DNA of 58,060 nucleotides, the filler included, from Dugesia japonica (taxonomy: Eukaryota), in assembly GCA_001938525.1 (NCBI GenBank). It is 5 parts of 5 records of this genome, joined end to end, with 100 filler letters (N's around TTAATTAATTAA, not from the genome) between each part and the next. Parts side by side here need not be neighbours in the genome. Positions count along the whole stretch, not along the records: positions 10,842 to 30,036 come from MQRL01606696.1; 4 more parts are not named here. One strand, 5' to 3'. Below the pieces are notes generated by a model, which was given only the letters and a program-made list of their open reading frames with translations, ran no database searches and was not told the origin of the DNA. Positions within the stretch are counted from its first letter, which is position 1. Each line of letters starts with the position of its first letter. Of the stretch, positions 12,937 to 49,094 are shown piece after piece. A program made the position numbers and the translations under genes.

Positions 12937-15900
12937 TTACATATGTACTAATCTTAAATGCCACATTTCACATGTTTCACAATAATATTTATTTCCATGT
13001 GGCCAAGTTTTTGCTCCATTATCTTCTATAATTCTTTTATCGTCATAACCCATTAATGCTATCTTTTTTTGTTCTACTATTTTAATTTCATGTAAATTTG
13101 ATCTTAATGAAAAATTATTTCCATAAATTATTTGTTTAGGATTATTTAATACTTCATCAAAATCTTTCATCAACATTTTATTATTTTTCTTTACACCTTT
13201 ATTTCTTGAATCAAATCTTGGTATATTGTCTTTATCAAAATAACTATAACCATAAGATTTTGCTTTTACAAAATCACCTTGAATTATTTCAGAATTAGGC
13301 ATTTCATCTTTCATCTGAAATAAATCATTTCCCAATAAACTATCCAACTTTATTAAATTATCTCTACCTTTTATCTCAACAAAGATACAATCAGTATCTG
13401 AATAATGAATTTTATAATTATCATTTCCAATTAATGGATCCATTTGTTCAAATATAAAATTATACATTACTTGTTTTGCATGTTCAAGAATTGTGAAACC
13501 TATATATGGAAATTTGTTATATCTTAATTTACCTTTTGTCATGAGCATTGCTGCTACATTAGTTTCATTAAAATCATTTATTGTAAAGATTTTACTTGAT
13601 TTAAAATTTATTTTAGATGCAAACGTTTGATATGCTTTGTCATTATCTACAATTTCTATGCTACACCTATTTCTAATATTTTCAAGTGTTTTCCATAGAA
13701 AGCATTTAACATTAATTTATAAATGTAATCACCAAAGACATCACTATTTCTTTTAGCTTCTTTTCTTAAACCTATTAATTTGAGAACATGATTTTTAAAC
13801 CATGGAGATGTTCTCATTGAAATTTTCTTGTGAATTTTTTTTAGTTTCATTCCACGTTTTAAATATAAATCTAATGTACTTCCTACAACTAGATAATTTT
13901 TCTTATCAAATTGATTAAGTGTAAGTTTAACATTATTCACTCCAATTTTCTTATTAAAACTTTTTTGGTAATTACTTATCATGTCTCGTGTAATATTTAT
14001 TCTTTCAGGTGCTAATGGAAAATATTTTGTTTTGTCATGTATTTCTCTTGGATAATCTAAATCAACTTCATAAATAAAATTAATGTTATCAGTTGAAATT
14101 TCATATTCTAGCTCGCTGCACTCGCTCATTTCACCTGTTGGTAATGTTCTAGTCATACAACTTGCATATAAAGAATTTTCATCAATATATTTTATAAATG
14201 TATCATCTAATAAATTTTCAAGATATTCATCTGGAATAAATTCATGTGTATTCATCATTTTTATTAAATCTTCAAATTGTGCTTTATTTAGTTGTCTTGT
14301 ATCTGGATCTTTATTTTTGTTATGTGCAAATACTTGTCTTTCTCCTAAAACTCCAGAATATCCACCTCTAATTCCTTCTTCAACTAATAAGAAAATATCA
14401 TAAGTATTTGGTTTCGCATATTTTAGTTTACATTAGCATTTAACATTCCTGTTTCCCATGCATAACCTGGTGCTGAATATGAATATGATGCATCTAATTT
14501 TAAAATATTGTTTAAACATGAATCTCTAAAGTTTTCTAAGAAATCTGCTAAAATTAAAACATCTAANTTCATATAGTGTAACATGTAACACCACATATTA
14601 TCAAAATTATAAAAGTCTTCTAAAAATATTTTATAGTCTTCATCAGATATTTCTTTTTGTGAAAGTGTATTAAAGAAATCTTGTTTTACTGGTATTCTGT
14701 TAGATTTTAATAATTCTTCAACTTGTGTGATATTATTACCTTTTACATATTCATATGGAAAACTTATTTTCTTAGGTCTTAAATTAAATAATTTTAAAAT
14801 TGGATAATTATTTGATTGTGTTAATAATGTTCCCATTACTTCTACTGATGTAAATGGAAGTAATCTTGCAGAATCTAAAAATTTAATATTTCCAAATTCA
14901 AATGAAATATAATTATCTGAAGAATGTGGAATTATTTTTTGAACTGATGATGAAAACTTTGTTAATAATTCTCTAAAGAATAAATGATTGTCATAACCTG
15001 ATGCATTATGGAAATAAAATGGTATAAATAAATTTTTAACAGAAAGATAATTTAAATTACAATTATTACATGACCATCCTCGAAATTCTCCAGTGAAATG
15101 ATTATGGTCTTTAATTGGAGTTCCATATATTTCATTTTCACAATATCTACATTTTGTGCCTTCGGACAATTCTGGAACTTCACCAATAACTTGTTTTATT
15201 AATTTATTTTCTTTAATGTTTTGCAATTCATCATTAACTTCTTCTAAAAACTCAAAGAAGTCTTCATAAATGTATTCACCTGAAAATTCATAATAATAAC
15301 TTAGGAATAAATCTTGATAATCACTTTTGAGATAAATCCCTAATAATGCTTTTTGTTTTTTATCTGAATTTGTGTAGGCTTCAAAATCTCCAATAAGAAT
15401 AAATGGTATTTTATTTTTCTGATAATATTTCTTAAAAGAATAATAATCTTCATATGGAAAAATAATATTATTTGGTTTGTGTTTAATACAAAATTCTTGA
15501 TGTTTCTTTAAAACTTCTTCATCTGAATAACAGTTCATACATCGTATGCATGGATAATTTGAGTTTCTATTTTCTGATGTAAAAAATACAGTTAGATCTC
15601 TACATAAAATATAATGATCTTTATACGCTAACAAATTACATTTATTACTCTCTGGATCTGGTTTTATTGTGTAATGTGAAATGTGTAGTGGTTCAAGTTT
15701 TTTATTAACATTTACACCAAACACATTTATTTCTAAATTATTTTTTATTAATTAATTTTTATTTCATCTACATTCATAGGAAATTTAAAACCACTATATT
15801 TTAATTCTGTTAAATGTGGAATATAATTATCTACACGTTTTGGATGATCAACTATATACTTATGTGCTAAAATTGAATTTAGAAAACATTTGTCATCTTT

Positions 15901-16728
15901 ATTTTCTATGTTAATTACTCCTTGTTTTTTAAATGGTAATTAGAATATGTTGCACCAGCTAATGATTGATATTTAGAAAGATCTAATTTATAATCAATTA
16001 TGTGTGACATACTCCATCCTGAGCCTTCTCTATCTTCATCTTCAATATATCTTTGTAACTCATTAAATATTTCATTAACAACATTTTCAATTTCAGTTAG
16101 AACTGTAAATCTTTTAGTTATAGAATATGATGTACAATCTCTTTCAGCATTTTCATTATTTATTTCTTTTGTATATCTACATTTAACTGACATACTTATA
16201 AGAATCTTTTTTCCATAATTAAAATACTTTGTAATAATTTCTTTAACTTCATTTTGAAATGTGTTAATTAATATCTCTAAATGGTTGTGTGAATATTTCA
16301 TCCACATTTAATTTCATTGTCACTTTGCTTTCCTTGAAATATTCAATTTCATAATTTTTATATTGTCTTAATAGATCTCTAATTTCTGGTTCATAATCAA
16401 TCGCTTCTTCACCTGGTAATTCATCATATAAAACTTTATTAACCATTTGTTTATGTTTCTCAGAATTATAATGTGCTCTTGCATGATTTTGTCTTTGAAA
16501 TCTTTTATTACAAATTTCACAAAATAATGGAACAATCTCTAGATTGCCATAACGTGTAGCATTTAAATGTTCTTGTAAACCATTTTCTGAATTAAATGTT
16601 TTATTACATCTTTCACATCGAAATGTCTCATTTGTTCTAAAACAAATTCTAGATCTAACATGTCCAATTAAACCGGCTTTATTTTTAAACACTTTATTAC
16701 AATTTTCACATCTTATTATTGGACTCAT
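12937..16728 (-). pseudogene. polB: Protein-primed family B DNA polymerase (pPolB) with N-terminal C2H2 fingers and endonuclease-VII-like insert, frameshifted
   Basis: Fragments contain three C2H2 fingers, EGSGW, DFEA (Exo I), DHNHFTGEFRG..CNNCN, FHNASGYD (Exo II), FLDS, FPYEY, DENSLY (motif A), KLMLNAFYGK (motif B) and YSDTD (motif C). Confidence 0.93.
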
Positions 16729-16879
16729 TTTCTATAGTATAAATTTAATCACACCTACTAAAAAAGTGGGTGCCGCAAATAAAACGTTTTTTTCAATCCT
16801 TTTTTTATTTTTATATTATTTGGTATTTCCTCTTAAATAAAAATGCGCGGGTATTTTATGGCGCAAAATCGATATTTAA

Positions 16880-17165
16880 AATTTGACATTTTTTACATCT
16901 CATTTTTTACATCTAAAATTTTACATCATAAATTTTACATCATAAATTTTACATCTCAAATTTTACATCACAAATTTTACATCTCATTTTTTACATCTCA
17001 AATTTTACATCATAAATTTTACATCACAAATTTTTGCATCAGAAATTTTACATCATAAATTTTACATCAGAAATTTTACATTTCACATTACAAATTTCAC
17101 AAAAAAATTTTACATCACACATTACAAATTTCTCATTACAAATTTTTCAAAAAAAATTTTACATA
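16880..17165. repeat. Subterminal tandem array of ~15-bp AAATTTTACATC(A/T)CA units in the Polinton end
   Basis: Direct reading. Confidence 0.85.
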
Positions 17166-17376
17166 AAAAATGAAGGGTACCCCCTTGGAAGTAAATCGTA
17201 TTATTACCATTACTTATATTATATTATACAATTATATTATATTATATATTAAAATTAGATGACGATAAGAATAAGAACTAACAACTACATGTTACATGAT
17301 TGGATTATTTTCATAATCAATTAATTTGCACACATTAATTTGGAAGTATTATAATCATTTTAAATTGAAATATCAG

Positions 17377-17520
17377 GATGTTAAAACATGTTGATTATGT
17401 GAATAAAAAATCCGATGAGTTAGAAAATACTTTTGTTGATAATGAGAATAAAAATAAAATATCCAACTCAACTGGAAAAAATTGTATTTATTCCATTGAA
17501 ATCGATGACTGTGAAACAAG
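17377..17520 (+). CDS. Possible isolated host exon
   Basis: TATCAG/...AAG/GTAAAT boundaries with an open frame (MLKHVDYVNKK...CET); no recognisable motif. Confidence 0.3.
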
Positions 17521-17924
17521 GTAAATGTATTTTATTTGAATTTATTAAAGTATGATAATTTGAAATAAATGAAATCAATATATATCAAAGTATTATTAGT
17601 AAAACATGATTATGTACAATAAATAGTTTATTCACACATAAATAATATAATTCTAAAAATTGAATTAATGTTTGTTAAAAATTTCTACACTATTAAAACT
17701 ATTGTGCTGTTAAAATAATTTTGAAATAATTTAAATAATTCTTATCGAAAATATTAATAGTGTATCGATATAATAATGTCTTATTCCAGCATATTTTGAC
17801 CTTGTTGTAGTGAATGTCAAAGAATCTACTGTAAACGGTGTTGATAGTTTTAAATAAATCTGCCAGCAAACTAAAATGAAGCGTGAATAGTAAAGAGTGA
17901 AAGTTTAATTACGCTAAATTTTTG

Positions 17925-18932
17925 AGACTGCCATGGTGAGCAGCTAGGTTCTATTACTCCGATTTTTACCAATTTGGCTGTTTCCTTATTTGCAAATTCT
18001 TTTTTCTCTACTGTCATGGCATATGGTTTCTGTTTGCATGGTGTTTCGTCTGTTAATGGAATTGTATGCATTTTCGCGGTGCACATACCCAGTTCCTCAT
18101 CTGTCCATGCAAAAATGTCTCGAAATTCCTCTAGTAATTGCAGTATTGCTTGTTTCTGATCCTCCGTTAAAGTCTCCGTCTCTACTTTAAATGTTCTGTC
18201 GATTTCTGGTTCAGTGGCTACTTCGTCTATCACGTCAGGTTCTGGTTCGATGGGTGTTAATGTACCCATTCTGGAATTTGGTTTGATTTTGATGTCTTTT
18301 TCCGTGAAATTAATCAGACTAACTGGTATTTCTCCACTTTTGTTGACCGTAGTTATTCCGCCTGCTGTGGGCAACTCATACTGCCGCGCAAATCCGTCAT
18401 ATGGTTCAAAATAACAATCTCCTTCGTAGGCACTTTTGGTACTGACTACGCAGTATACCTGGCATCTACTGGGCACCAAAATTTCTTCTGTGGTAAATAC
18501 TTCGTGATCCTTCACATGGGTATAGCCTTCCAATGATTGTAGCCTTAATGTGGAGAAATTCAGTATACCGTTTTTCATCAGGATGGGAAGAATATCCGTT
18601 CCTAGGATACACTGTCCCATCATTTCTACAATGATCATATTGTGTTTAATTTTGTTATCCTGATATTCAACTTCACAGGCCGATTCTCCAAAAATTTTGA
18701 GGCTGCTACTATTTGCCACATCTGCTGTAGTGTTAGTGGGTAATATATTTTTATATTCTGTTATCGCAATTTCATCTATTGACAGCAACGATATGGTGGC
18801 TCCGGTGTCCACTAGTGCTATTATGGNNNNNNNNNNNNNNNNNNNNNTAATGGTTAATACTGGTCCCCCATTGAGGCTTGCACATACTACATCTGAAGGG
18901 TTATGACTGTAGTTTGATTGTGTTTTGCTTTT
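17925..18932 (-). pseudogene. pol: Pol N-terminus: aspartic protease (PR2), dUTPase-like region, start of RT; truncated
   Basis: ALVDTGATISLL..ILGTD; 'EILVPSRCQV...IPVSLINFTEKDIKIKPNSRMG'; 'IFAWTDEELG..HTIPL..PCKQKPY..GVIEPSCSPWQS', then abrupt transition to AT-rich host DNA. Confidence 0.9.
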
Positions 18933-18942
18933 ACTAGAGTAA
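18933..18942. repeat. Left inversion-boundary repeat ACTAGAGTAA
   Basis: Exact reverse complement of TTACTCTAGT at 21985-21994; lies where the coding strand switches. Confidence 0.75.
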
Positions 18943-21398
18943 TTCGGATTGTGCGAGATCAGTTTAATAAAATCGAGAACGGGTGGACGCGTGGACCTCG
19001 CCGAAACTCATGGCATGCATTAACCACCACAATACTTTTGTTGTTCTTAATGATGGGCAGAAGCGAAGCTATCCTAGCATATGATTGAGATGGGATGCAA
19101 GTTTGGAAAGAGGTATTCTCATTAGTAGATACAGAAGAATGCCCAGATGCAAACCCAGAGAANNNNNNNNNNNNNNNNNNNNNNNNNNNNNNNNNNNNNN
19201 NNNNNNNNNNNNATTCTATTTATCATTTATATCAAGAATCCGATTATTATAAGGCCCAAGTACGCGAGTGCTCAGTAACGGTGAGACCGTTCATATTTCA
19301 TTGTGGTTATTATAGTTATACGTTAATAATCGACCCCAGAACAGTGAGACACCCTGTACATCTAACCGGACAACAATGCGATGAAGGATTCTCCACAGGG
19401 AAAATTACCATGAAACATGGGACTCAAGTTGTTGCCAAGAAAGGACATGTAATCGACCAACCTATAGAAGCAGCAGGAAGCATATCCACTCATAAAGGCC
19501 ATGGTACCTACACCATACGAGGGAAGGTATGGACGTATGCGGTAGCAATAGAAACCTATACCGTGGAACTCAAGGAATATGAAGCGTTTTTCGATGCTCA
19601 AGATTTGACGATTAAGGGAAGATCGTACTGCAAGGCAGCCGATGGATCATGTAATACAGGCACATCAACATTGACATACAAAGTGGAACACCAGGACTGT
19701 AAGTTGGCACATCTAAAGGAAGCCGTGTTTAATGAATACCAAGGACAACGCGCTATAACACCTATTGACCAAACCCCAAAAGAGGGTAACCTAAAGGAGA
19801 GAATAGATATTATCAAGGAAACAATAAGGACAGGTCCGAAGTCGTATGACCAGCAATGGCATACAACGCCGACGGTGCTAATGTCTTCGGAACAGGACGA
19901 GACTATCCGTCTAATTAAAGGAAATTCAATGTCAAAGTGTGGGCAAATAGTATTCAAAACAAACTATAAAGGAATATTCGTGTCTGAACATCGAATAAGA
20001 ATGGCGAAAGCCGCAGTAATGTCCCAAGACATCAAATTACACCTTTACACCAACAATAAACTGGACAATATACTTCGCCAAATGCAAGATACCATCAGAC
20101 GAATGTACCACGACCTCATTCAAAATGACTGCACGTTAAACAAGGAAATATTAAAGACAAAATTAGCAATGACAGTTACGAACCCTGACAGTGTCACTCC
20201 ATTACTCCCATTGAAAAAGGGACAATTGGGTCGAGTGGTAGGAGAAGTGATGTACTTATATAAATGCAAGGCCATTGATGCCGAATTCTCGTCAAATCCG
20301 AAACACTGCTACAATGAGATAGAAATTATTCACAACAACGAGAAAAGATACGTACAACCAATTACTCGAATAATATCGCCGTTGGGCTATAGGTCGAATA
20401 TCATAAATTGCTCTAATGTATTTGGACCACAATACGTAATGATGGATGGGTCATGGATAAGATTCCCTCAACGAATGGCAGTAGGAGTCGAACCACGAAA
20501 ATTTTCAATGTTACAACTAAACGGGGGCATGCAATTCACCCCAATCGATATAAATAAAGGAGGGATCTATAGCAGAGAAGATTTAGAAAAAGCAAGGGAA
20601 TATATGTTGTTCCCAGTCCGAAGAATGCAAATTCTCTCAAATATAGTACAATTAACCAGTGGGACCAACATCGACGGACGAGTAAATTATGACGCATTAC
20701 TATCAGCAGACCACTTTCAAAAAGCCACCGAAAATGTCATGAGGAAAATGTGGGGAAGATTCATAATATTTGGCCAAGCAATGGCAGGGTTGTTGGGAGT
20801 TATGTTGATAATTTCAGTAGCACGAGTAGTGATCACGCAATTATTCGCATGTTTCGATATATATAAAAGAGAGAAAAAGGTGAATTGGAAAATGGTAACA
20901 GGAATATTTCCGTTTTTAGCCAAAACTATNNNNNNNNNNNNNNNNNNNNNNNNNATCGACAGAGTAAAGAGATTCATTCGGAAGCTCGGACAAATAAGAG
21001 GATCAGACAAGGAAGTTATAATGCAACTCAGACTATTATGTGAGGAAATGAGCAACGCTACGAAGAAGATATCATATTTCAACCAATTCAAAGAAAGGTT
21101 TAAAAACAAGGACGAAAGTAGCAGCAACAGCGATGATGATAGAGGAGAAAACAGTGGAATACCACATGTACCCAGTTATAAAACCGCTATGGAATATGAG
21201 GCAGAGTTCAAAAGGCAGCAATACGAAAAGATCAGCAAGATGCAACGACTAAAGAACGCGTTAAAATTCGGAGGAGGAGAAAGCACGCCAGCACCAGCAC
21301 AAATGTACTATAACGCGTATCCACAACACGGTTGGCAACCCATGAACCAAACACCACAACCAGTATGGGCATTAGGCCCTATGTACAACAATCCGTAA
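18933..21398 (+). pseudogene. env: Envelope glycoprotein, chuvirus/herpes-gB-like class III fusogen, with internal signal sequence and TM anchor
   Basis: In-frame upstream of the 767-aa ORF is ALTTTILLLFLMMGRSEA-ILAYD*(C) (signal plus YDC start, with TGA at the Cys position). Conserved Cys pattern: CSV..FHCG, C..G.C, NDC..K..L, GEVMYLYKC..CYNE..YVQPITRI..INCS..PQY...W. TM segment FIIFGQAMAGLLGVMLIISVARVVI. Confidence 0.85.
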
Positions 21399-21974
21399 AT
21401 AAGCTCACTACAAGCCCCGAATCTGACGTTGATAACTGAAAACAGTGTGTCGACTATAGACAGAAGGGTAATCGAACAAAACCTACGCACTCCGCATAAT
21501 CAGATAACTGAGGATGATAAATTAGAAACACAAACGGTATGTATGATGATGCCCCAGAGAGCGAAATTACTACAAAAAAGGATAAAAATCGACGGAAGAT
21601 GGGTAATAGCTATTATTGATACAGGGGCAAGTACGACGTTAGTTCATAAAAGGATATTAGAAGATTATCGCCTACTTAGAATAACAATTAATAAAGGAGT
21701 TATTATCACGGCCTCTGGANNNNNNNNNNNNNNNNNNNNNNNNGCAATATGTGCAATAGAAAGCGATGGAACTCGATTCTGGCATAAACTGCAGATAATG
21801 AACGAATTAGCATTCGATTGCCTATTAGGGTTGGACCTCTTACCACGCCTTTGTCCGGATGGAATATTGAATTTGAGCAAATTAACCACACGAGAAAATT
21901 ATAATCAGGAGTATGCACCGATAGGTTTTCGGAAAACTCGAATAATAACACAACCGAAACGACAATTCTTTTAA
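21399..21974 (+). pseudogene. Second retropepsin-like aspartic protease (PR1), in frame with env after a single stop
   Basis: IAIIDTGASTTLV...DCLLGLD; ORF 21429 is in the same frame as 19095. Confidence 0.85.
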
Positions 21975-21984
21975 CACAATTCTT

Positions 21985-21994
21985 TTACTCTAGT
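21985..21994. repeat. Right inversion-boundary repeat TTACTCTAGT
   Basis: Reverse complement of 18933-18942; adjacent 12-bp tandem duplication ACAATTCTTTTA. Confidence 0.75.
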
Positions 21995-22046
21995 TTATAT
22001 GAGAAGGTTGAGGTTTAGGACAGATGGCCTCAATAAACTTCGTCCA

Positions 22047-25000
22047 TCACCCCTGTTGCTTTATTAATGACACTATTTTATTCTGCATTAGGTTCACTAT
22101 TGGTAACTTACTGAGGATGAAGTTTTTTGACGGCTTGCATCGGGCATTTGATAGATGCGTTTGATTAATCAGATGTGCTATAGATACTACTATCCTTCCT
22201 TTTGTTGGCTGATCCTGTAATAACTCGTCCATGACTCCTTCTAAATTATCTCGAGTACCGTGACTAGTGCCTTTGGTGGCAGGAAATCTCTTAATAGCTG
22301 CTTCTATCTCTTTTACTAGTGGTCTGAGACTATCTGACAGTTGGAATTTTCCAATCCATATTTTTAATTCTGAATATAACATTAGCAATAATTGTCGTAT
22401 TACTACTTCGGTTGGCATATCATCATCTGTTGAAGTTTCGTGATATCTTTCTTGTGATAACGTTGCTAATCGCTTAGTTTGATGGCTTATTGACGTTGTT
22501 AATCGTTTTTGTTTCAATGCCTCCTCCTCCTCAGGATTTCCTGGAGGTTTCGTCCTTGGTCGACCTCTATTACGAGGTTCGGTAATCGTTTCGGCATCCA
22601 CTCTGGTACGTACCGGTTTTGGTGGTACCTCTTCCTCTTCTGTTTCTATTGGATTCTCCATCTCTAGGGGGTGGTTTGTATCTAGTAAATCATCCATTAC
22701 CGAGTATGGTAATTCCTTTGCTATTTTACTTAATATTGGTGACAAAGGTTGGTCTTCCAATATGTCATCCTCGTCTAAGTCGACCTTGCTAGGGTCATAT
22801 TTTTTGTTTCGTATTGGTCTTTGTTTCTTCAATTTTTCTAATTGGGGGGGAATATTTTGTAATTTGTAACTCGTTTCCGTCTTCCGCTGACTCATCTGCT
22901 GATGGTGATCCGAATATCTCACGCTCCCAATCTTGGCTTGTTCGTGGAGTCTCTTTTGTTTCTCTGGACGTTTCTGTACTTCCTGATTGATCTGTGGTAG
23001 GCCTTAATATCTGACTAGCCGTTAGTTGTGTACGGAGTTTATGTGCTTTTAGCATACTTGAAGTTTCCCCCATTATCGGTCTGATTTTATCCGCTGCTTT
23101 ATAAGGATCTGCATCTTTTCTCGTGAGAGTACCTCCTAATTCAGGAAAAATCCACAACGTATTAAGTTTAACTAAGTCTATTTTCATTAGTCCAATTGTT
23201 GTGGTATCTTCCCCCACTCCGCTTTCATCCACGAGTCTGTATGGTGGTTTAAATGGTAACTTGTCTCGTAGGTGTTTTACCGTATTATATACCGGTATTT
23301 TAATCGGGATTTTGTCTCCTTCAGGATCTATTATTCGAAATTTAACTTCCAATGGTGTGGCTTGCCCTATCTCCGCTTTCCGCCATTTGACCAGAATTTT
23401 ACTAAACTGAATGGGATCCCATAAATGCGCTGCTTTGATGGCTAGAATTAATTGTCGCCATTTTCTGAGATCTTCTACTGCCAGATCTTGTTGTAAGGCT
23501 ATATTGCATCGTCGTATGATTTCTGGTTTTACTAATTTGTCCCATACTAATAATTCGAACAATTTTGGCAAATTGTCTTCTGGCTACTCGTCCCTGACCG
23601 GGGTGTTGGTCAGAGCCGCTACCATCTCTACTCGTTGTTTATTTTGTTCTTGTTTGGGAAGTTTGGCTCTAGCGAATACTAATGGATGTATCTCTTCTAT
23701 ATAATATTCCACCAACTCTCTAGCTTCCTGTTTCCATTTTTCCTCCGAAACTCGTGGTCGCCGTCCCTTCTCATTCTTTGCAGTTACATAGATTTTTAGT
23801 TTAGTGCCTGGCCAAACCCCCATGTATTTTACCGGCAACCTCATTTGATCTGGTTCTATTACGTGGTTGTAGTAGAGTACTATATCGTCTTCTTGAACTG
23901 GTGTTGGTGCTCCAGTTTCCTCCTCGTTGAGGATACGTTGTTGATTCATAAATTTTACAATCCACTTGCGCAACTTAGCCCATGGTTCATTCATTTGGAT
24001 CTGCCATTGAATTTCACTTGCATCTGGGAATTTTATTATTACGTTGACGGTTTTGTTGGCTATCATACGAACTGCTTTATTTAATATCGCATCCATTATG
24101 TCCTCCGGCATTTGACTTATAGCTCGTAGTTGATTTAGCTTTAGAACTAATTGGATGACTTTGTCATGTCTTAATAGTTCCAAGTTTTCTTCCAATGTTA
24201 AGAGTATTTTCATTATTACTCGCGCCAGACTTCCCCATGTTTTACTGTCTTCCCATAACTCAATATTTATTTCCATTGTTCTGTCGTCGATTACTTCGAA
24301 TAACTGCCCCCCGTTGATATCTTGTTCATACAATCTCTCCAGTTGTTGTACTACTTCCCCCATAGGTTTTACTGGACCTGGGATGTAGTCCTCGGGTTTC
24401 TGTATTTGGAGAAGTGTATTTTCACCGGGTCTTAACCCGACGTCCAGTAAATGTTGTTTCCCCTCGAACTTTATGGGAAATCTCAAGTGATTGCTGGTAA
24501 TCACATAGCCTTTCTGTTGATCAGCTATATCCAGTGATTCTATAATTTCCTGTTTTCTCCTGCTGACGTGCTATTGAAATGTGGTATATGCATGACAGCC
24601 AATTCTGGTTCCCTCCTCGATTTCTTGTTTGGAGTCAGATATTCTATCGTGATATTCAATCTTCTCCCTGAGCACTTGCTTTCACTGCCCCAATGTATGG
24701 CTTGATTACGGATTCCCACCTGGCGCGATCTTCTCTTGCTAATTCAGTTAGCTTTGTCAGATCCATTAATAAATTTAATGCTTTCCAAAATGTTGTCCTA
24801 GGTATCCTTTCCTGGAAATAACAGAAATCCGAAATTATCTTCGCGATCCGCTCCGTCTGAGGAGAACTAAAAGGACCAGCGAATTCAGGTTTAAAGGGTA
24901 ACAATCGAGGTTGACCCTTATTCTCTGAGATTCCCCCCTCCTGCTCTTCTTCATCTGAAGTTAGGTCTGGGGTGTTAGGGTCATTATCCCGAACCATGTT

Positions 25001-27460
25001 TATCTGAGCTTTGTGTTCTCCATAAGTGTTTATGAGTCGTTCATTTTCTACCGGTAATATTTCTTGTAGATATAAGCTCATCATATTAAATATGAGTTGA
25101 TCGGTGTCTGGCATTTTCGGTATCGGAAGGTCTACCGTCATTTTACGTGATGTTAGTTTGATTTCTGTGATCTCTCCTGGCTTGATATCATGGAGGAAGA
25201 TGTGATCCGCTTTTTCAGCTAACAGGATCGTTGTTGCTCCCGCCTGCATTTTATAGGATTTGATCGATTTTGGCCATAACCATTTTTTATAGGTTTCAAA
25301 ATGTGTCGGATAGTTAATCCTTCCAAGGTTATCATATCTTCCTTTTTTATGTGCCCTTCCTTGTTGAGCAGACTAACTCTGATGGAGTATTCGGATATGG
25401 TGGAGGTATTTTGTACTTCTTCTTCGTATAAATTTTTCTCCTTCCACCATTGGGCACGGGCCCACAAGCTAAGTTGTCCATAGGTTGCCAAATCTCGTAG
25501 GTTGATCATCATCTTCCAATATACTTTGATATTCACCACCGGGCGTGTTTCGCGTGTTACTCTCATCAAATCATTGATAGCGTGAAATGTGGCGGATTCC
25601 TCTGTTATTGGTTTGGTATAGTTCATCCGAATATCGCGTATGGTTGGCGTCCCTTCTGGAAACACAACTGCCTTTGTAGTACTTATTGGTAGATTATCAA
25701 TATTCTGTAGTTTCTGATTTTCTTTTATTTGTTCCTTCATACCTGACAACACTTCAGTTACGTATATTTCTGTTATCTCTTCTATCCTTTCTTCAAGGTC
25801 TGGCGATGGAACTGTTCGAGTTTCTTCCTCCACATCTAGTTCACATATCTCTCCAGGTTTTGAGTGACATTGGAATATATGTTTGTCCTCGTCATCTGTT
25901 TCTACCAATTTGCCATTTATGAACAGGGGTACCATATTTAATCCTTGTTCTCGCCACTTATCGGTAACGGCATCCATTAAATCCATCATGGTTATTCCTT
26001 GTGGTTTTAATCGGCTATATTTAGTCAATTCTTGTTCATTTTTACCTATATTCAAATATAATTGATAGTTCCGAATTTTGGTAGTTGCTAATATTTCTTC
26101 GGCATATTTGCCTAATCATGAGCCATTGGTTTTCGATTTCTTCTGGTATCTCTAGTCCATCGTATATGTCGTAAATTCTATTCATTATCATCCAATAAGT
26201 TTTTCGGGGTAAGTTCTCCTTTTCCATTTGTACCCGATTAACCATTTCTTCCACCTTGCGCATTGCTACTACCTCTCTTGACGGCATCTGTCGCATTCTT
26301 ATCATGTTGCATTTATCTTCTCTTCTCTCTAATCGTTGTCTGAGGAAGTCATTACGCGTCATTAGCAACTGTTTCCTTTCCTCCTTTGTCAGTTTATCCT
26401 TCTTTCCGAGGACCGTGGAAAGTATTTTGATTTTAATTGGCTCTACCCCTTGTTTATATAGATATTCCATTTCTCCCATGATTTCTAAAGCTGATCTACC
26501 AGTTTTCGTTACCCATACGTCATAATCGATACCTGGGTGTTTGTCCAATATTACTAGTTCGATTTCCTCTCCTGGTTTTATTCCGAAATTGTAGATATGT
26601 CTTTTTCTGGCATTAAAATCCACTATTGCACTTGGAGTACATACGTATTTACTCATCACACAGGGATAACCTGCTTGATTGAGTGCCGCTTCTAGATCTT
26701 CTACCATTAGCCCCGTGAGTGTCAATTTCATATTACCTTCTGGGTTATACAACCATACTTGGTAATCCGATAAGCCCATATTGGATATTACCCAATCGTA
26801 ATGTACTGGTAACCATTCTGTCCAATCACTTTCTTCAGTGGTTATTAATTTTATAACTTCCAATAGCTCCACCAATCGATTTGTCAGTATCATGGAGTTT
26901 CTGGGCGGCTACCAATATCTCATCAATTCGGGCTAATGATAACCTTGATGCCTCGATTTGTCCCAATTCTAGGTGGTCCATTAGCCTTACTGTCCCCAAC
27001 CTTTTCCGCATGTATGTTTGTGACTGGAGGGGCACAATTTCTTTTAAGAATGTTTGCTCGAGATTATGATATAACTCGCCTGTTTCTATTTCTTGAATTA
27101 CTATTTGGGGTCTGAACACTAATCCCCAGTTAATTAACTTGATTATGGTTATTTCATAAGGTCTTGCCCCATAATAGATTAAGTTCTTATCGCCTGGGGT
27201 AATATTGATTCCGATATTGCCGATTTGTATTCTATGTCTATTCCACTTCGTATTCCATTATTGCTGGTCATTAAATGGTAGTGCGTCGAAGATTGGGTTT
27301 ACTGCCATACCCTTAATGCCGTTCACCTCTCCCCGTTTTATTTCGTTGATTGCTTCCTTTAAGTGTCGCACCGTCATTCCTTTTAATGCGAGCTTTAGTC
27401 GCTTTGGAGCTACCTCTGGGTTGTTATGCCATACATATTGAATTTCGAACTCATAGTCTT
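22047..27460 (-). pseudogene. Gag-extension polyprotein: tandem ubiquitin-like plus helical modules, then a low-complexity/AT-hook-like region and a helical domain
   Basis: Abutting or overlapping same-strand ORFs joined by single stops or frameshifts. A recurrent [H/L][I/L]xxxGx[K/R]PGE-x-x-x-[L/I] motif appears every ~600-750 bp. RGRPR is in the 22047-22922 ORF. Confidence 0.7.
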
Positions 27461-29250
27461 CTAGTTGGGTTTCTTGATACAGCTCGGTAATATAGTCCGA
27501 TATCGTTTTCTGCCAATTAGCCCTTACCTTGGCGTGTACTTGAGGGTGCTGATATAGTCGGAGCAACTGGTTCATCACCCGTCTTCTTCCGGTGGTTNNN
27601 NNNNNNNNNNNNNNNNNNNNNNNNNNNNNNNNNNNNNNNNNNNNNNNTGTTTTGTAGATGATCTCTTCAGTCCAGTCAAATTCTGGTGACGTAATCAATA
27701 TTCGCTTTCGAGTATCTTCCATCTCGGTGACTTCCGTTGTTTCGTCATATTGGTTATAGATTTGCCTGTGTGTCCTGATCATATTACACTGATTCTTGTG
27801 TGGTTCGTTTAATAAGTTCCTTTTGGCTAGTCTCTCCTGCTGTACCTGCAGATCTTGGTTTTGCCACTTAAGCCAATCATTTTCCTGTTTCACCTTGTGG
27901 TACACATTGTCAAAAGTATTTTGATGTACTAAATTAATTTGTCCCTTATTTTGATTTACTCGTTGCCTTAATCTCTCGTTTTCCTCCATTAGATTATCTA
28001 GCTTCGCATTCTGATTCCGATTATAATTGGTTTGATTTCCGGCTTGACATTCTTTTGCCATATGTCCTCTTCTATTACATTTATAACATACNNNNNNNNN
28101 CTTCAAAAAACACGTTTCCACATTGTGGTTGGTCTTCTTGCAATAGGTACAGAATCGATTGTTGTTACTATTATTGCCTCTACTTCTACAGTTGCGGGAT
28201 ATGTGTCCTCTTCTTCCACACGTATTGCATTGGATGTCTCGATTATTTTGCCAATTATTCCGAGGTGCATTAAATCACCCATTATTTACTCTAGGATAGT
28301 TAGGTCTATCATTCCGGTTGTTTCGTTCCTGTCCTGGGGTCAGGGTTTTCATCATTGATTGTGTATTGGGTATAAAATCTGATATTCGCGGTGTGGTTTC
28401 CTCAGTTTGTCCTTCCCCTTTGAATATCCGTTCGGATGGTCTGTCTGCCACGATTAGCAATGTAGCCAGCGCATCCTGCAGTGTTACTGGTTTACTCAAT
28501 TTTACCATCAGCTTAGCATTCTCATCGCGTAATCCATTTAAGAATATGGCCAATACTTGACTGTCTTCCAATTTGTCTCCTAACACTAATTTGCCGCGAC
28601 TCTTAAGTTCCATCATGTACGCCTGTGGCGTTTCGCCTTTTTGTTGTTTTCGATTAGTGAATTGTTCGAAATCTTGACCGGTTAGTTTCAAATTTTGGAA
28701 ATTGTCAATTAGTATTTTTACCACCTCTTCCCATTTTTCGGGGATGGACTCCATGCCTTTAGTGTGATCCCAAAATACAGTTTTGGCCACTCCTGTTAAG
28801 TAAGCTGGTAACCGCTTTCTTTTTGTTTCCTCATCCCATCCACAGGTTTTGGCGTACATTTCGTAATTTTGAATAAATTCGTCCAATTTTTCAGGTATTC
28901 CACCAAAATATTCGCCATCGAATTTTATTTTCCACTCTGGTCGATGGTTTTCAGTTTTGGTTGTCATGTTGCTATCTTTTGCTGTGTTTGTTTCTATTTT
29001 CGGGTTTTGACTTGTTATCGTGTGGGTTTCTGTTTCTGACTCGTTTGTCGGTATTACTAGTGCGTTGGTGCTTCCCTGGTTATTGTCAGTTACTTCTATG
29101 ATTTCTTGTTCCTCTGATGTATAACTTAATCCGCTTGATCGATTACTATTCTCTGGAGTTTTATTAGATGTGGTTTTTTGGTTGGTTTGAGCTGATGGTT
29201 TCTAGTGTTTTGGTTTTAGATAGCGCGGTGGCTTTGTCGAATTCCGATTT
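27258..29250 (-). pseudogene. gag: Gag: capsid domain plus three CCHC zinc knuckles
   Basis: FGG..EKLDEFI..YE..W....RLPAYLTGVA..W...KQQKGETPQAY..L...FLNGL. In frame past one TGA (28275): CNTCGRRGHISRNC, CTYCKKTNHNVETC, CYKCNRRGHMAKEC. Confidence 0.9.
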
Positions 29251-30036
29251 TTTTAGTAAACAAATATTCTCGTCCGGGTCTAAATAAAGAGATGTCTTTT
29301 TTAGTTTCCTTGAAGACTTTTGTCGGGTGAGTTGGGTTTCTTTTAGAACTGAGCTTGGGGTAGATATCCCGGATGTGTTAGACCTTGTAAGTGGCTTCCT
29401 GTTTTCTGAGTCGGAATCTATCTTGTCAGAGTCCGGCTAGTTGGTTTCTTGTTGTACTTCGGTTTTGTTTTCGGGTTACTTGTAGCTTAGGTTTCTAGAA
29501 TAAAAATTTCTCCTTATTGTCTTTTCTGAGGAGGCAATCACTCCTTTTCCAGATTTTAAACTTACTTTATTATCATGCTGCTCAACACTTGTCATCATAG
29601 CCCCGCAACCATCTTCCTTTGATTTAATTACGTATACATTTAATCTTCCTTTAATTTTATTTTAATTTTCCTTAAATAAGTCTTCCTTTAATCTTCTTTT
29701 TATGCTTCCTTAATTTCTTCCTAATTAATGCCAGGCTATTTCTTCCTAAATGTGGGAGTACCCATTTTTCTGTAGTATAGGCGAACTCTTCTGGNNNNNN
29801 NNNNNNNNNNNNNTTTAATATGCCGGGGTAACAGTGCACACTTTTAATAATTCTTCCTGGGGGAGTACCGAGAGTTTTCTGAGGGATCAGCGGTCCCATT
29901 TGGAGTACCCTTTTCGTGTAGGCGAACGCTTCCGGCTTCCTTTAATTCTTCCTCTAATCAGGTTCCTTTAGTGTGCTTAACTACGTGGCCTTCCTTTAAC
30001 ATACTGGTTAATGTGCTTAGGACTTCACGTATCTTC

Positions 30037-30136
30037 NNNNNNNNNNNNNNNNNNNNNNNNNNNNNNNNNNNNNNNNNNNNTTAATTAATTAANNNNNNNN
30101 NNNNNNNNNNNNNNNNNNNNNNNNNNNNNNNNNNNN
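30037..30136. other. Artificial contig-joining spacer
   Basis: 44N-TTAATTAATTAA-44N. Confidence 0.95.
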
Positions 30137-33100: not shown

Positions 33101-35916
33101 ACTGTATTTAGCATCCTTGTTTTTAATTTTCCACTCTTGGGATCTTTATGTGACATTAGGCATTGTGCACATGTATCGTATTTACTCGTTGACAACATAT
33201 CCGCATTTGTATTGAAGCGATCCTTTTCTATATTCCAATTTTATATCTAAACTACTCAAATAATTAATCCAGGTTTGAAACTGTGATGTGATCGGTTTCT
33301 TGGTATTTAGCGTATAAGTGATAGCTTTATGGTCTGTCCTGAGGATAAATTATCTTCCATATAAGTAATGTTTGAAATTAATAAAAAAGCAGTCAATTGC
33401 GAGTAATTCATTTCGCATATTCTTCTTCAGGAACTGTTTTTCAGTAAATTCTTATTACAAACTTTGACATAGAGACAGATCTTAAATAAATCTGAGTAAA
33501 ATCAATTTTCATTGGATATTTATTATAATATCAAACTAAATGAACATTTTCTCGGTTAATTGTTGCAAAACATTATGATATGCGGAAATATGGAAAATAA
33601 AATAACATTAACTTTGATCTTTGCTTGTAAATAATTTTTTGAAATAAAAAAAATCATTTGTTGTTAAAAACGAATTTATTTATTGACAGATCAATGGTTT
33701 TTTTAAAAAATAATTTTTTAGTTTTTAAACAATTTTAAAAAAGGATTTATCATAATGCTTTGCAGCAATTAACCGAGGAAATTTTCATTTAATGTTATTT
33801 TACAAATAAAATCCAATGAAAATCGATTTTACTCAGATTTATTTAAAATCTGTCTTCATGTCAAAGTTCGTAATAAAAATTTACTGAAAACAGTTCCTGA
33901 AGAAGTCTATACTGAAATATGGAAAATAAAAGAACTTTGATTTTTTTATTTAAGATGATTAATCAAATAATTTCCATTTTTATGTTATGAATTTCAATTT
34001 ATATATGATGACTTAGAGTTTTATGTGTTGACTTTGAATTTTAATGTTATTCAGAGGAGTTTCTAATATTAAGTACTTATTTATCTATTTATTTCATCGG
34101 GGGTAAAGATTGTCGAATTATAATCATGCTTTTCTTACTCAACCTAAAATTCGCTATCCTAAAGATATTTTGATGTTTGTATTTGAACTACTTTTTATTT
34201 TTTCAAAACTTGGATAAAGGTCGTCAATTATAAGGTAAAGCAACCCTTAAAAGTACTTATTTTTCTATTTATTTCATTAGGGTTAATGGGATTTTATTCT
34301 TGATAAGCGAAAAGTTCTCGATCTAAATTTGAATTACTTTTTATTTTTATAATTATCAATTTTGAAATAATATTTTTTGACAAGTCTTACCGTATATATT
34401 CTCTATCAGCGTATTTAAATTTGGATGAAAATTATAAAAACTAATTTTTTATTTGTGATTGTTAGGAACTCTCAGAAATTTGACATTGTTTTTTCAATTT
34501 TTCTCAGTCAAAATTAAGTTCGACGATTTTAGGTGGTGCTTTTCTTGATCAGCAAAAAATCGAATCATGTAAGTTTCGATGCGATTTAAAAATAAAAAAT
34601 TTTCAAAGTTTGTCGGGTTTATACACAATTCTTCAGCCCCACGCAGGATTTGGCGATTTTTAACTAGGTCTATCATAATCGGCGTAAAATTCTCTATTTA
34701 AAAAGAAGAGTTTATAATTAAATTTGAGAAAAAAATATTTTGCGAAAAAATTTTTCTAGCTAGAAATATTCTCGAAGTCATTCTGAATCGATTGATGTTT
34801 AAAAAATGACGTTTAAATTTGGGATTTTATTTATTTTTAAAAATATGTATTATTTAAATCAAATAAGATTTTCCAAAGAATTTTCGGTCAAATTCTTACA
34901 TTGTGTGCAAATATTTGACTGAAATTAACCAAATAGACCAGAACTACAATCCCGAGGAAATTCCTTACCAAATTGCCTAAAAATTACTCAAACTGACCGT
35001 GTTGAGAAAATAATTGACAAAAATTGCCCAAATCTGACCACCCTGACGAATTAATTGACCAAGAATGCCCAAATCTGACCACCCTGACGAATTAATTGAC
35101 CAAGAATGCCCAAATCTGACCACCCTGACGAATTAATTGACCAAGAATGCCCAAAACATACCGGTCCGAGGAAATTCCTTATCAAGGTTGCCTAAAAATT
35201 ACCGAAACTGACCCAGTTGAGAAAATAATTGACCAAGAATGCCTAAAACATACCTGTCCGAGGAAATTCCTTACCAAGTATGCCCAAAACATACCTGTTC
35301 GAGGAAATTCCTTACAGGATTGTCTAAAAATTACCAAAACTGACCCAGTTGAGAAAGTAATTGACCAAGAATGCCCAAAACATACCAGTCCGGCTAAATA
35401 TTTGACCGAATCGACCAAACACCACTCAAAATTATCCAGATTCAATCTCACAAATCGCTTGAAAAGCCTTAAAAGTACTAAAAATTCCAAATCATTTAAT
35501 GCCCTACATAATAATCGCGACGATGAAATTAACATAACTTAATCCAATTACATAAAAAATTATTGCCGCTTAAAAAGCTGAGAAAATTGCAAATCACTTA
35601 TGTACTAATTTTTACGCCAGTGGGGTGGGGGTGAGTGATCTAGTGCTGCACTATCTACCTATTTTTTAATGTATATTTTAGCATGATCTTTGTTCTTTTA
35701 TTTGTTTAAAATTTTCATTTAGGAAAGCCTCCATATTTAGAATTCGTGCCTGCGGCGGTACAGTTTAAAATTGGAACAACTAAAACAATTCCATACCAGT
35801 TACCAGAATCCTCCTCAAAGGAAATGAAAGACTTTATCGATCAAATGTTGATTCCGGAACCTTATAAACGTCCAAACGCTCTGGATTTAATTAAATTTAT
35901 GAAGGATATCGAATAA
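30137..35916 (+). CDS. Ser/Thr protein kinase, MAP3K/STE11-like, 3' exons 30137-30203, 31245-31374, 31424-31636, 35723-35916
   Basis: Spliced translation: IFMEFMPG/GSL...YTNQILEGLQFLH..IIHRDIKP/DHILL..VKLTDFG..GTPYYMAPE..DIWSLGVTLIEMLTG/KPPY..AVQFKIG...KRPNA; GT-AG introns keep frame. Confidence 0.9.
30560..30890. repeat. Intronic minisatellite-like arrays (CAATATTAACAT x4, then TCATACTATT x~7) with variable spacers
   Basis: Direct reading; period ~24-27 bp. Confidence 0.7.
32185..33420 (-). mobile_element. Ty3/gypsy RNase H-integrase fragment with PPT and start of 3' LTR, in kinase intron
   Basis: ELLA..FKHYLYGR.FILRTDHKA; HHLLCHAG..CITCQ; AAAAGGGGGG-TGTAAG at ~32198-32183. Confidence 0.8.
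33423..33905. repeat. ~155-bp diverged inverted repeat with ~170-bp spacer (foldback/MITE-like)
   Basis: CTTCTTCAGGAACTGTTTT...CATTATGATA (33423-33580) is the reverse complement of TATCATAATG...AAAACAGTTCCTGAAGAAG (33748-33905). Confidence 0.85.
34930..35410. repeat. Tandem repeat (41-bp AATTGACCAAGAATGCCCAAATCTGACCACCCTGACGAATT unit and variants)
   Basis: Direct reading; explains spurious ORFs 35147-35542 and 35182-35535. Confidence 0.88.
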
Positions 35917-36649
35917 TATTTTACATCGGTAATCTGGTTTAATAATAATATTAATCTATGTTGTTGTCTGACCTCTTAATATTAGCTAAAATCATATATT
36001 TATATTTAATTAAATGTGACATCATTGATTGAATCATGTGTGATTAAAACGTGCGAATTCTAAATATAGTTAGTATGCATTCCACACAACGGTGCATGTG
36101 TGTTTTCATAAATCCAAGTGTAATGGAGAATACCAGAATAAAACGAAACAATGTGGAAAAGTTTTATTATTAATCGATAATGCATCATGATATTGCGAAA
36201 TTATCTTGCTGCTAAAAAAAATAAATTATTCTACGAGACAAATTAAAATAATGTTATAATAGTAGGGGCATATGGCCTTTCTAGAACATGATGTGACGCA
36301 ATCACCGTTCACACCTCAATGTAAACAACAATAGGTGTGAAAATTCACACCTTTTGAGCCAATTCTCACTTTAATTGTAAACAGTGAACAATTGATTTTT
36401 TATTGTTTTTTGTTTAAAGCGTTGCGCATTAATAAATTGACTTATTATTAATAATAATATTATTATTTAAATGTGTTTATAGTTGTGAATTTTTAGACCT
36501 TTGACGACAATATTCACATCTAAATGCAAATAATACATTTTTATTGACTTGTAAATTTTCACGCATTATTTCATCTTACAGCTATTTTCATCCGAATTAA
36601 TATTTTTTTCATTCAATTTAATATTTCAGAGTTTAATATCACTGTTTCT

Positions 36650-37024
36650 ATGTCTACGGTTAACAGGGCCATAGACAAGTTTAACTACAGTGTTAAGAGA
36701 ACTAGTCTCATCCCCGAGAAGCGTAATATGCCGGCGACTCTGACTTTAAGGAAAACTTATGCTCAAGAATTCAATAATTTGGTGACCGACATAAATACTG
36801 AATACAACTTTTATCTCATAGATGAAGTTGAATTCAATCTTTCTATGAAGACTCGCAGAGGTCGATCTCAAATAGGGCAGCGAGCTAATCATACAGTATC
36901 TGCCCTGAGATCACGAAATATGTCAGTCTGCTGCACTATGTCAAAAAATGGAATTATTAAATATAATGTTCAAACTACAGCATTTAATACAAAAAATATC
37001 TTACTTTCTATTTTCTGTGTTTGA
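36650..37024 (+). pseudogene. Tc1/IS630-type DDE transposase fragment
   Basis: STVNRA..YSVKR...FYLIDEVEFNLSMKTRRGRSQIGQRA. Confidence 0.75.
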
Positions 37025-38189: not shown

Positions 38190-38681
38190 TTATTGCATAA
38201 GTGATCCTGTATTTTTTTGTGATTTTAAATCCAATTCCACTTGATAATAAGCATTTCCGAGGTCAATTGAACTAAAATAACGTGCACCAAATAAAGTATC
38301 AAACAATTCTTCCACATTTGGCATCGGGAAAGCTTGTCTAACAGTTATTTCGTTTAGTTCTCTAAAATCTAAACACAATCTTATATCTTTTTTCCATTAT
38401 TATTATCCCGTTATTATTTAATGTTTTATCAAATTTGTTTATCCAATATCCCACGCGTCTACCATGAAAGCTACTTTGTTTTTACTTATTATACCATATA
38501 ATTCAGAATTTTTATCTATTTTAAAAGTTTTTATAGCCTTCTCAAATCTCTACTTATCAGTTACACTTCCTTACCAAAATTTGTAATAATTTCGCATACT
38601 TGATAAATAATTTGTTCTTCATTTACCGGTTCTATTTTAAGCTTAATATTAAATTTCTTTTGTAAATCAATCCCACTAATA
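38190..38681 (-). pseudogene. Ty3/gypsy RT fragment
   Basis: RLCLDFRELNEITVRQAFPMPNVEELFDTLFGARYFSSIDLGNAYYQVEL. Confidence 0.85.
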
Positions 38682-38781
38682 NNNNNNNNNNNNNNNNNNN
38701 NNNNNNNNNNNNNNNNNNNNNNNNNTTAATTAATTAANNNNNNNNNNNNNNNNNNNNNNNNNNNNNNNNNNNNNNNNNNNN
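38682..38781. other. Artificial contig-joining spacer
   Basis: 44N-TTAATTAATTAA-44N. Confidence 0.95.
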
Positions 38782-43890: not shown

Positions 43891-43976
43891 AATTTATAAT
43901 TAAATCACTAGTTTTCAATGAAAATTCTTTTTTTTTCATTCATTTTTCAATTATAAATAACTCAAATCATTTTCAG

Positions 43977-46900: not shown

Positions 46901-47017
46901 CATTTCACCATATTGATTTTATGGTGTTTGTCTGGTGGTATTTGTTTTCTCAGTTTTGTCTATACAATAGTTTTATTAATGAAAGAAAAAACTTTTGAAG
47001 AAGAACATTTGACATGA
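43977..47017 (+). CDS. Large terminal exon of an unknown N/I/E-rich protein with a C-terminal transmembrane helix
   Basis: Open frame of ~1000 codons in AT-rich DNA, TTTCAG acceptor at 43976, C-terminal FTILILWCLSGGICFLSFVYTIVLLM; spans an N gap so frame continuity is assumed. Confidence 0.7.
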
Positions 47018-48994: not shown

Positions 48995-49094
48995 NNNNNN
49001 NNNNNNNNNNNNNNNNNNNNNNNNNNNNNNNNNNNNNNTTAATTAATTAANNNNNNNNNNNNNNNNNNNNNNNNNNNNNNNNNNNNNNNNNNNN
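48995..49094. other. Artificial contig-joining spacer
   Basis: 44N-TTAATTAATTAA-44N. Confidence 0.95.

Follow-up and report, generated by a model that had tools for sequence, protein, structure and literature searches.

Burro (GYPSM1) elements are giant retrotransposons of dugesiid planarians (Grohme 2018 and Jurka 2007, as cited in PMC6431247). The text of Arkhipova and Yushenova (2019, PMC6431247) gives them a Gag with three knuckles, a Ubi2/SUMO-like motif, BCL2, an Env in frame between gag and pol, a protease (PR), a dUTPase-like domain and a reverse transcriptase (RT), with an open reading frame (ORF) of 4,873–5,140 aa that it calls the first example in which env lies in frame between gag and pol. 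The same text adds a total length of >25–30 kb, extended long terminal repeats (LTRs) and an RT cluster, Burro1-4, as traits of the type, and, for Burro1 (GYPSM1), puts a MATH domain after Gag and before the Ubi/SUMO-like motif; a Burro1 IAP study is cited in the text of PMC13465017. Gypsy elements with the order GAG-ENV-POL are described from Nematoda, Bryozoa and Platyhelminthes in the text of Chary and Hayashi (PMC13524379). Here we analyze a 58,060-nt stretch of Dugesia japonica DNA (the window), in which positions 17925–30036 hold an element that we compare with these systems. Very probably, this locus represents a giant Ty3/gypsy element of the Burro type in a copy that is decayed and 3'-truncated and carries a 3-kb inversion, likely restricted to this copy, and its intact ancestors likely encoded one polyprotein in the order Gag, repeat array, Bcl-2-like domain, signal peptide, Env, transmembrane (TM) helix, protease, protease, dUTPase-like domain, RT, RNase H (RH) and integrase (IN).

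Anatomy of the locus

The window joins several unrelated, short, AT-rich and gapped contigs through linkers at 10742–10841, 30037–30136, 38682–38781 and 48995–49094, all of them identical and each made of 44 N, a six-frame stop word and a further 44 N. The source contig (MQRL01606696.1) covers 10842–30036, and the element reaches its right end at 30036. Base composition and, by eye, the Env type suggest a triclad flatworm. On the minus strand we found Gag, three CCHC knuckles, seven middle ORFs and an ORF that leads from a protease through a dUTPase-like domain into the first part of RT. A single plus-strand frame carries a hydrophobic segment, a Monjiviricetes fusion glycoprotein, a TM helix, a tail and a second protease. 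A first-pass annotation had placed gag, a ~5.5-kb run of ORFs and PR-RT on the minus strand, with env and an extra protease on the plus strand, and all of these are present in the ORF map and Pfam searches. Its estimate of ~11 kb (roughly 3,700 codons) before RT likewise agrees with the measured Gag-to-RT span of ~11.3 kb, in which ~3,770 codons precede RT.

Within the plus-strand block, positions 19089–21398 match the Monjiviricetes fusion glycoprotein family with an E value of 5.6e-76 (PF24664). The Env ectodomain (19077–20777, plus), which has one in-frame stop near its start, is of the chuvirus/Monjiviricetes (HSV gB-type) class by this match and by tree; a search of Env against the PDB gave no credible sequence match. 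The ectodomain contains 12 cysteines and, in its unmasked part, one N-glycosylation sequon. An internal hydrophobic segment (19020–19076, plus), which is a predicted signal peptide, ends just ahead of the conserved Env start motif. Downstream of the ectodomain, a predicted TM helix (20778–20834, plus; Kyte-Doolittle mean 2.36 over 19 residues) is followed by a cytoplasmic tail or linker delimited by the ORF map and hydropathy (20835–21398, plus), which ends at an in-frame stop. Nine other ORFs contain no 19-residue segment above 1.41, and the ORF of protease 2 peaks at 1.62. The earlier suggestion of an internal signal peptide before Env and a TM segment after it is thus supported by two membrane segments in the hydropathy profile and by a hydrophobic stretch at the position of the signal peptide in relatives. 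The signal peptide, Env and protease 1 (21399–21974, plus; Pfam E 1.7e-7), whose DTG motif is intact, share one frame that is interrupted by three in-frame stops.

Natural relatives encode Env ahead of PR-RT

We searched 1.84 billion representatives with Env and scanned 15 of the 150 proteins listed, mostly chosen by length; these relatives were judged from protein sequence only. In 11 of the 15, a protease follows Env in the same ORF, and five of the 15 continue to RT. Gag or a knuckle lies ahead of Env in four, and Env follows RT in none. A single ORF of P0017 reads knuckle-Env-PR-RT-RH-IN, P0023 reads Gag-knuckle-weak ubiquitin match (E 0.03)-weak Bcl-2 match (E 0.055)-signal peptide-Env, and P0001 provides independent support with Env-PR-RT-RH. 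P0151 runs from Env to IN in an uninterrupted ORF of 4,844 aa with seven protease stretches. The order PR-RT-RH-IN is found in five integrase-bearing relatives (P0002, P0007, P0015, P0017 and P0151), and their PR-RT matches that of the element in the window, which itself contains neither RH nor IN. Because in relatives a single ORF encodes Env and then PR-RT, with uninterrupted Gag-Env as well as Env-PR-RT frames among them, both the Gag-Env-Pol order and the single polyprotein proposed at first pass are supported.

The position of the window Env among these proteins was examined in a tree of 47 rows, comprising the window, 13 proteins >900 aa and 33 of lesser length (30 being a random draw from 131 aligned). 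Twelve of the 13 long proteins join the window Env in a 100/99 clade, apart from stand-alone glycoproteins. Two of the relatives have further features. P0151 also contains ankyrin repeats, a C2H2 finger, a dUTPase-like region and RT-RH-IN, and extends ~1,500 residues past its integrase with more proteases and hydrophobic segments, while P0007, an Env-PR-RT-RH-IN polyprotein of 2,627 aa, is assigned by its source to a Flavobacteriaceae metagenome-assembled genome and is probably misbinned animal DNA.

Duplicated proteases and the truncated Pol region

The second protease of the window (18546–18932, minus; DTG intact; Pfam E 0.002, below the curated cut-off), the dUTPase-like domain that lies between it and RT (18266–18545, minus; PF00692 E 0.0019, also below the curated cut-off) and the first RT residues form one stop-free ORF (17871–19007, minus). 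A linker and the start of a Ty3/gypsy-type RT occupy 17925–18265 (minus), where tblastn of five relatives ends at 17925, and no RNase H, integrase or LTR was found after the truncated RT in this copy. Proteases 1 and 2 share 29% identity. At least two protease stretches occur in 6 of the 15 relatives, and some of the seven identified by Pfam in P0151 lie after integrase. Protease multiplication is a trait of the clade and not an accident of this copy.

Gag, the repeat array and the Bcl-2-like domain

Pfam identifies a Gag capsid (Retrotrans_gag, E 1.3e-4) at 28275–29201 (minus), to which the Gag regions of P0010, P0011, P0017 and P0023 also match, and three CCHC zinc knuckles of the nucleocapsid at 28062–28229 (minus; zf-CCHC E 6.5e-9). 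In the ORF map, a low-complexity ORF upstream of Gag and in a different frame (29164–29436, minus) is likely the N-terminal part of Gag. Self-similarity reveals an array at 23131–27464 (minus) of diverged repeat modules, six of them clear and a seventh weaker, broken by stops and frameshifts. Each module comprises a putative ubiquitin/SUMO-like domain (Ubl) and then a helical part, with a period of ~590–750 bp (~195–250 codons). Four of 19 ORF pairs reach at least 27 bits and the best reaches 39, compared with at most 28.9 in 200 shuffles; judged by this comparison, the middle ORFs are homologous to each other beyond chance. The seven ORFs at 22047–27257 (minus) belong to no convincing Pfam family, with two marginal matches only (E 0.026 and 0.036), and searches with two of the middle ORFs found no homologs among longer and similar-length proteins, which is weak evidence of absence.

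The first-pass annotation had described this region as (Ubl + helix)×6-Ubl, of which the repeats are real as sequence and the Ubl label is weakly supported. That label is suggested by the module pattern and by weak leads, namely Atlas leads of 0.82–0.85 to SUMO-like, ubiquitin and CLU-N clusters and matches of one repeat unit to SUMO2 (E 0.08) and UBX (E 0.17); profile, PDB and fold tests do not back it. A unit profile found no match in the PDB, a further Atlas query was blank, and the fold model of a repeat unit is of low confidence (pLDDT 41.5). With leave-one-out profiles, four of the seven repeat units were the best non-training match, all at E 0.16–1.1, and three were missed, while a profile built from the Ubl-like stretches of two relatives recovered no repeat units. 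The six-hit motif count in the array is not independent, because the pattern came from the units themselves. The last repeat unit ends in di-glycine (23131–23160, minus), roughly where ubiquitin itself ends; P0023 and P0013 have no di-glycine at that position of their Ubl-like stretches.

Between the array and the signal peptide, the first-pass annotation had seen a linker. A low-complexity linker with an AT-hook-like RGRP motif, common to P0023, is indeed present by ORF map and comparison (22413–23130, minus), but the region also holds a Bcl-2-like domain that had been overlooked (22044–22412, minus), which has BH1/BH2-like motifs and an in-frame stop inside the latter. Alone, this stretch matches Pfam Bcl-2 at E 0.062, and a five-sequence profile that joins it to the corresponding stretches of four relatives, which contribute to the score, matches Bcl-xL at E 5e-4 over BH1-BH2. 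By profile, then, the stretch just before the right breakpoint of the inversion is Bcl-2-like, a Burro hallmark, and stands directly before Env.

Inversion, truncation and decay

The inversion breakpoints lie at the left (18933–18942) and right (21985–21994) arms of a 10-bp inverted repeat, and the AT skew reverses sign across the plus-strand block. Traced by hand, the frames are out of phase across both breakpoints, so that a single ORF cannot be read from this copy. Spacings measured by hand resemble those of relatives: the BH2-like motif lies ~67 codons from the start of Env (51–81 in relatives), and the two proteases are ~167 codons apart (133–287 in relatives). From Gag to the breakpoint, ORF bounds on the minus strand indicate ~seven frameshifts and four in-frame stops. 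At two in-frame stops of this copy, nearly all sister pieces among the rows listed have a different sequence, as do most of them at two of its frameshift sites, and these lesions are thus private to it.

DNA depth was taken as summed contig depth, which is not a copy number, from four genomic-looking runs (two of unrecorded kind) of three studies. Depth drops to 12–22 beyond 17925 in three of the runs, and because relatives also stop matching at this point inside RT, the copy is truncated as well as inverted. Truncated in RT and bearing many stops and frameshifts, it is dead. Over the whole element, depth is 10^2 to 10^4 times that of the flank, in inverted and non-inverted parts alike, and 69% of pieces are <95% alike in the first DNA run; this combination of high summed depth and divergence points to an abundant, diverged family. 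In four RNA runs under the same species label, the family is close to silent, with 7, 110, 5 and 73 reads among 10–14 million records each, 188 of these 195 fitting only partly. Most RNA coverage falls at 29750–30036 in short, loose-ended partial matches, probably reflecting a short repeat shared with other transcripts.

Alternative explanations

Several observations weigh against the reconstructed polyprotein. Searches with two middle ORFs found no homologs of the array, and its continuity with Gag and Env in one frame therefore rests on relatives with shorter middles. The model of the Bcl-2-like domain (pLDDT 52.9) gave no Foldseek match at E 0.001, and its top VIA-align matches are generic helical bundles rather than Bcl-2. 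Topology and cleavage are predictions drawn from hydropathy alone. No intact copy of the family was seen and no assembled piece spans the whole stretch, so the order in sister copies is read from relatives and not directly observed. Finally, the 15 of 112 DNA-run joints listed include none at a breakpoint, and none came from the RNA runs.

With no breakpoint-spanning record among those listed, the 3-kb inversion may be an assembly or library chimera rather than a genomic event, which we regard as rather unlikely and which would leave the family order unaffected. The window is built of short gapped contigs, the family is highly repetitive, and chimeric junctions typically carry short inverted microhomology. 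However, the same 10-bp word at both breakpoints, together with relative-like spacings on both sides, is as in a reciprocal inversion.

A clearly less probable alternative retains the element and its order but has Env or Pol expressed separately, by read-through, frameshift or spliced RNA, and not as an equimolar polyprotein. A single polyprotein yields equal amounts of Gag, Env and Pol, unlike most LTR elements, and two stops of this copy fall at domain boundaries, one after the Env tail and one after protease 1. In its text, PMC13524379 also treats GAG, ENV and POL as ORFs. Yet Env runs stop-free into the protease in 11 of the 15 relatives, the text of PMC6431247 reports Burro as one ORF (4,873–5,140 aa), and two stops and two frameshift sites are private to this copy when compared with the sister pieces among the rows listed.

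Least of all do we favor a chance insertion, in opposite orientation, of an Env-protease fragment of another element into a Gag-Pol element: the opposite strand and the low identity of the proteases (29%) would suit it, but we reject it as highly improbable because the block is bounded by an inverted repeat and not by a target-site duplication, comprises exactly the parts that separate the Bcl-2-like domain from the last protease in relatives, in a clade where tandem divergent proteases are common, and has similar DNA depth to the sequence outside it.

A possible route of polyprotein maturation

If the intact ancestors encoded one polyprotein with Env inside it, Gag, the repeats and the Bcl-2-like domain would be synthesized in the cytosol, after which the internal signal peptide would start translocation of Env into the endoplasmic reticulum and signal peptidase would cut behind it. 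The Env helix would serve as a stop-transfer segment, placing the proteases and Pol back in the cytosol. The spent signal peptide would keep the first half of the polyprotein anchored, so that the Bcl-2-like domain would have a tail-anchored topology as in cellular Bcl-2 proteins, and Pol would be tethered to the Env tail until released by the element's own proteases, of which two linked domains could pair inside one chain. The Bcl-2-like domain and the repeats would sustain survival of the host cell or interact with its ubiquitin system. This copy is capable of none of these steps.

More tentatively, it is possible, though on balance somewhat unlikely, that this Burro-type family has a module, not described before, for processing and host control. 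In it, six or seven ubiquitin/SUMO-like domains would stand in tandem, the last with a di-glycine open to cleavage by a host Ubl protease; the Bcl-2-like domain would be anchored via the Env signal peptide; and the multiplied proteases (two here, seven or more in a relative) would act in a single chain or be specialized. Maturation of the one membrane-threaded polyprotein would then depend on signal peptidase, Ubl proteases of the host and several proteases of its own. Protease multiplication and the repeat array bear on how one Gag-Env-Pol polyprotein is membrane-threaded and cut in workable amounts, and the Bcl-2-like domain ahead of the signal peptide suggests a testable route for such elements to act on host cell death.

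Neighboring sequence

On the same contig, 11805–16731 (minus) holds a Polinton/Maverick-like fragment with a protein-primed DNA polymerase B (E 2.6e-12), an endonuclease VII-like domain, C2H2 fingers and a weak adenovirus IIIa-like match, and a 14-bp tandem array (16891–17089) lies between this fragment and the truncated element. Rfam gave no match on contig 10842–30036. Fragments of further transposons lie on the other contigs at 2600–3665, 33160–33445, 36548–37024, 38190–38395 and 50790–51918, among them gypsy integrase, RNase H and RT pieces, a DDE_3 transposase and a DDE_Tnp_1_7 transposase of piggyBac-like type. A stop-free frame of 1,018 codons that includes an N gap (43961–47017, plus) is acidic and Asn/Ile-rich with a hydrophobic C-terminus, and has no convincing Pfam match.

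Comparison with described elements

Chuvirus-env BEL/Pao elements carry Env downstream of pol. We rejected membership of this group on the relatives, none of the 15 scanned placing Env after RT. The mosquito elements described in the text of PMC7642597 have the same glycoprotein family in a different superfamily, and the window Env groups in our tree with polyprotein-embedded Envs, not with stand-alone glycoproteins.

The text of PMC13524379 describes "ancient errantiviruses" with an HSV/gB-type Env, notably Smed_errantivirus_1-6, that share the order and the Env type of the window. Compared by eye, the Env of the window follows that paper's Platyhelminthes C1a rows and has a 13-residue identical stretch with Smed_errantivirus_5, but is far too divergent to be any of the six Smed_errantivirus families. 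According to its text, that study sought GAG only ≤5 kb upstream of ENV-POL, and because of this limit an 8-kb Gag-plus-array region would escape its description. Non-canonical nematode metaviruses (Sacco et al. 2022, as cited in PMC13524379) are likewise Ty3/gypsy elements with ENV-POL order, but the nematode C1 Env rows look much less similar to the window Env than the flatworm rows (by eye, 18 rows), and the citation mentions no giant middle region.

Four sequence-testable features of Burro are found in the window, namely Retrotrans_gag with three CCHC knuckles, a mononegavirus-type Env between the Gag region and PR (a placement that reads through the inversion and has the support of relatives), a BCL2-like domain directly before Env, and a dUTPase-like domain between PR and RT. 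The coding length is similar, the copy number is high and decayed copies are known, and a Ubi/SUMO-like region between Gag and the BCL2-like domain has weak matches in the window. The first-pass annotation was right to suspect a relation to Burro, which is closer than it supposed; the domain list matches the one published in the text of PMC6431247. The element here differs in having six or seven repeat modules where the Burro text has one Ubi2/SUMO-like motif, and two proteases where that text names PR once (its figure may show more); it also lacks LTRs, RNase H and integrase in this copy. Pfam found no MATH, BIR or ankyrin match in the preserved 12 kb, and with no MATH or BIR match in the ORFs of this region the element is not Burro1 itself. 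Our literature search found neither doubled proteases in gypsy elements nor Burro with Bcl-2 and ubiquitin-like domains together, either of which further figures or papers may show, and the text of the Dugesia genomes preprint, supplements aside, does not mention Burro.

Two proposals of the first-pass annotation do not hold against these reports. It had taken env downstream of pol as the rule, whereas env in frame between gag and pol has been known since 2019 (text of PMC6431247), and it had put forward a candidate new lineage, which we reject since the arrangement is already published for Burro and for GAG-ENV-POL gypsy elements (texts of PMC6431247 and PMC13524379). With its headline arrangement described before, what the locus adds is mainly one more Burro-type family, decayed and of high copy number. 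The number of repeat modules and the clade-wide multiplication of proteases are possibly unreported, and the element is very probably a new member of the Burro-type GAG-ENV-POL elements.

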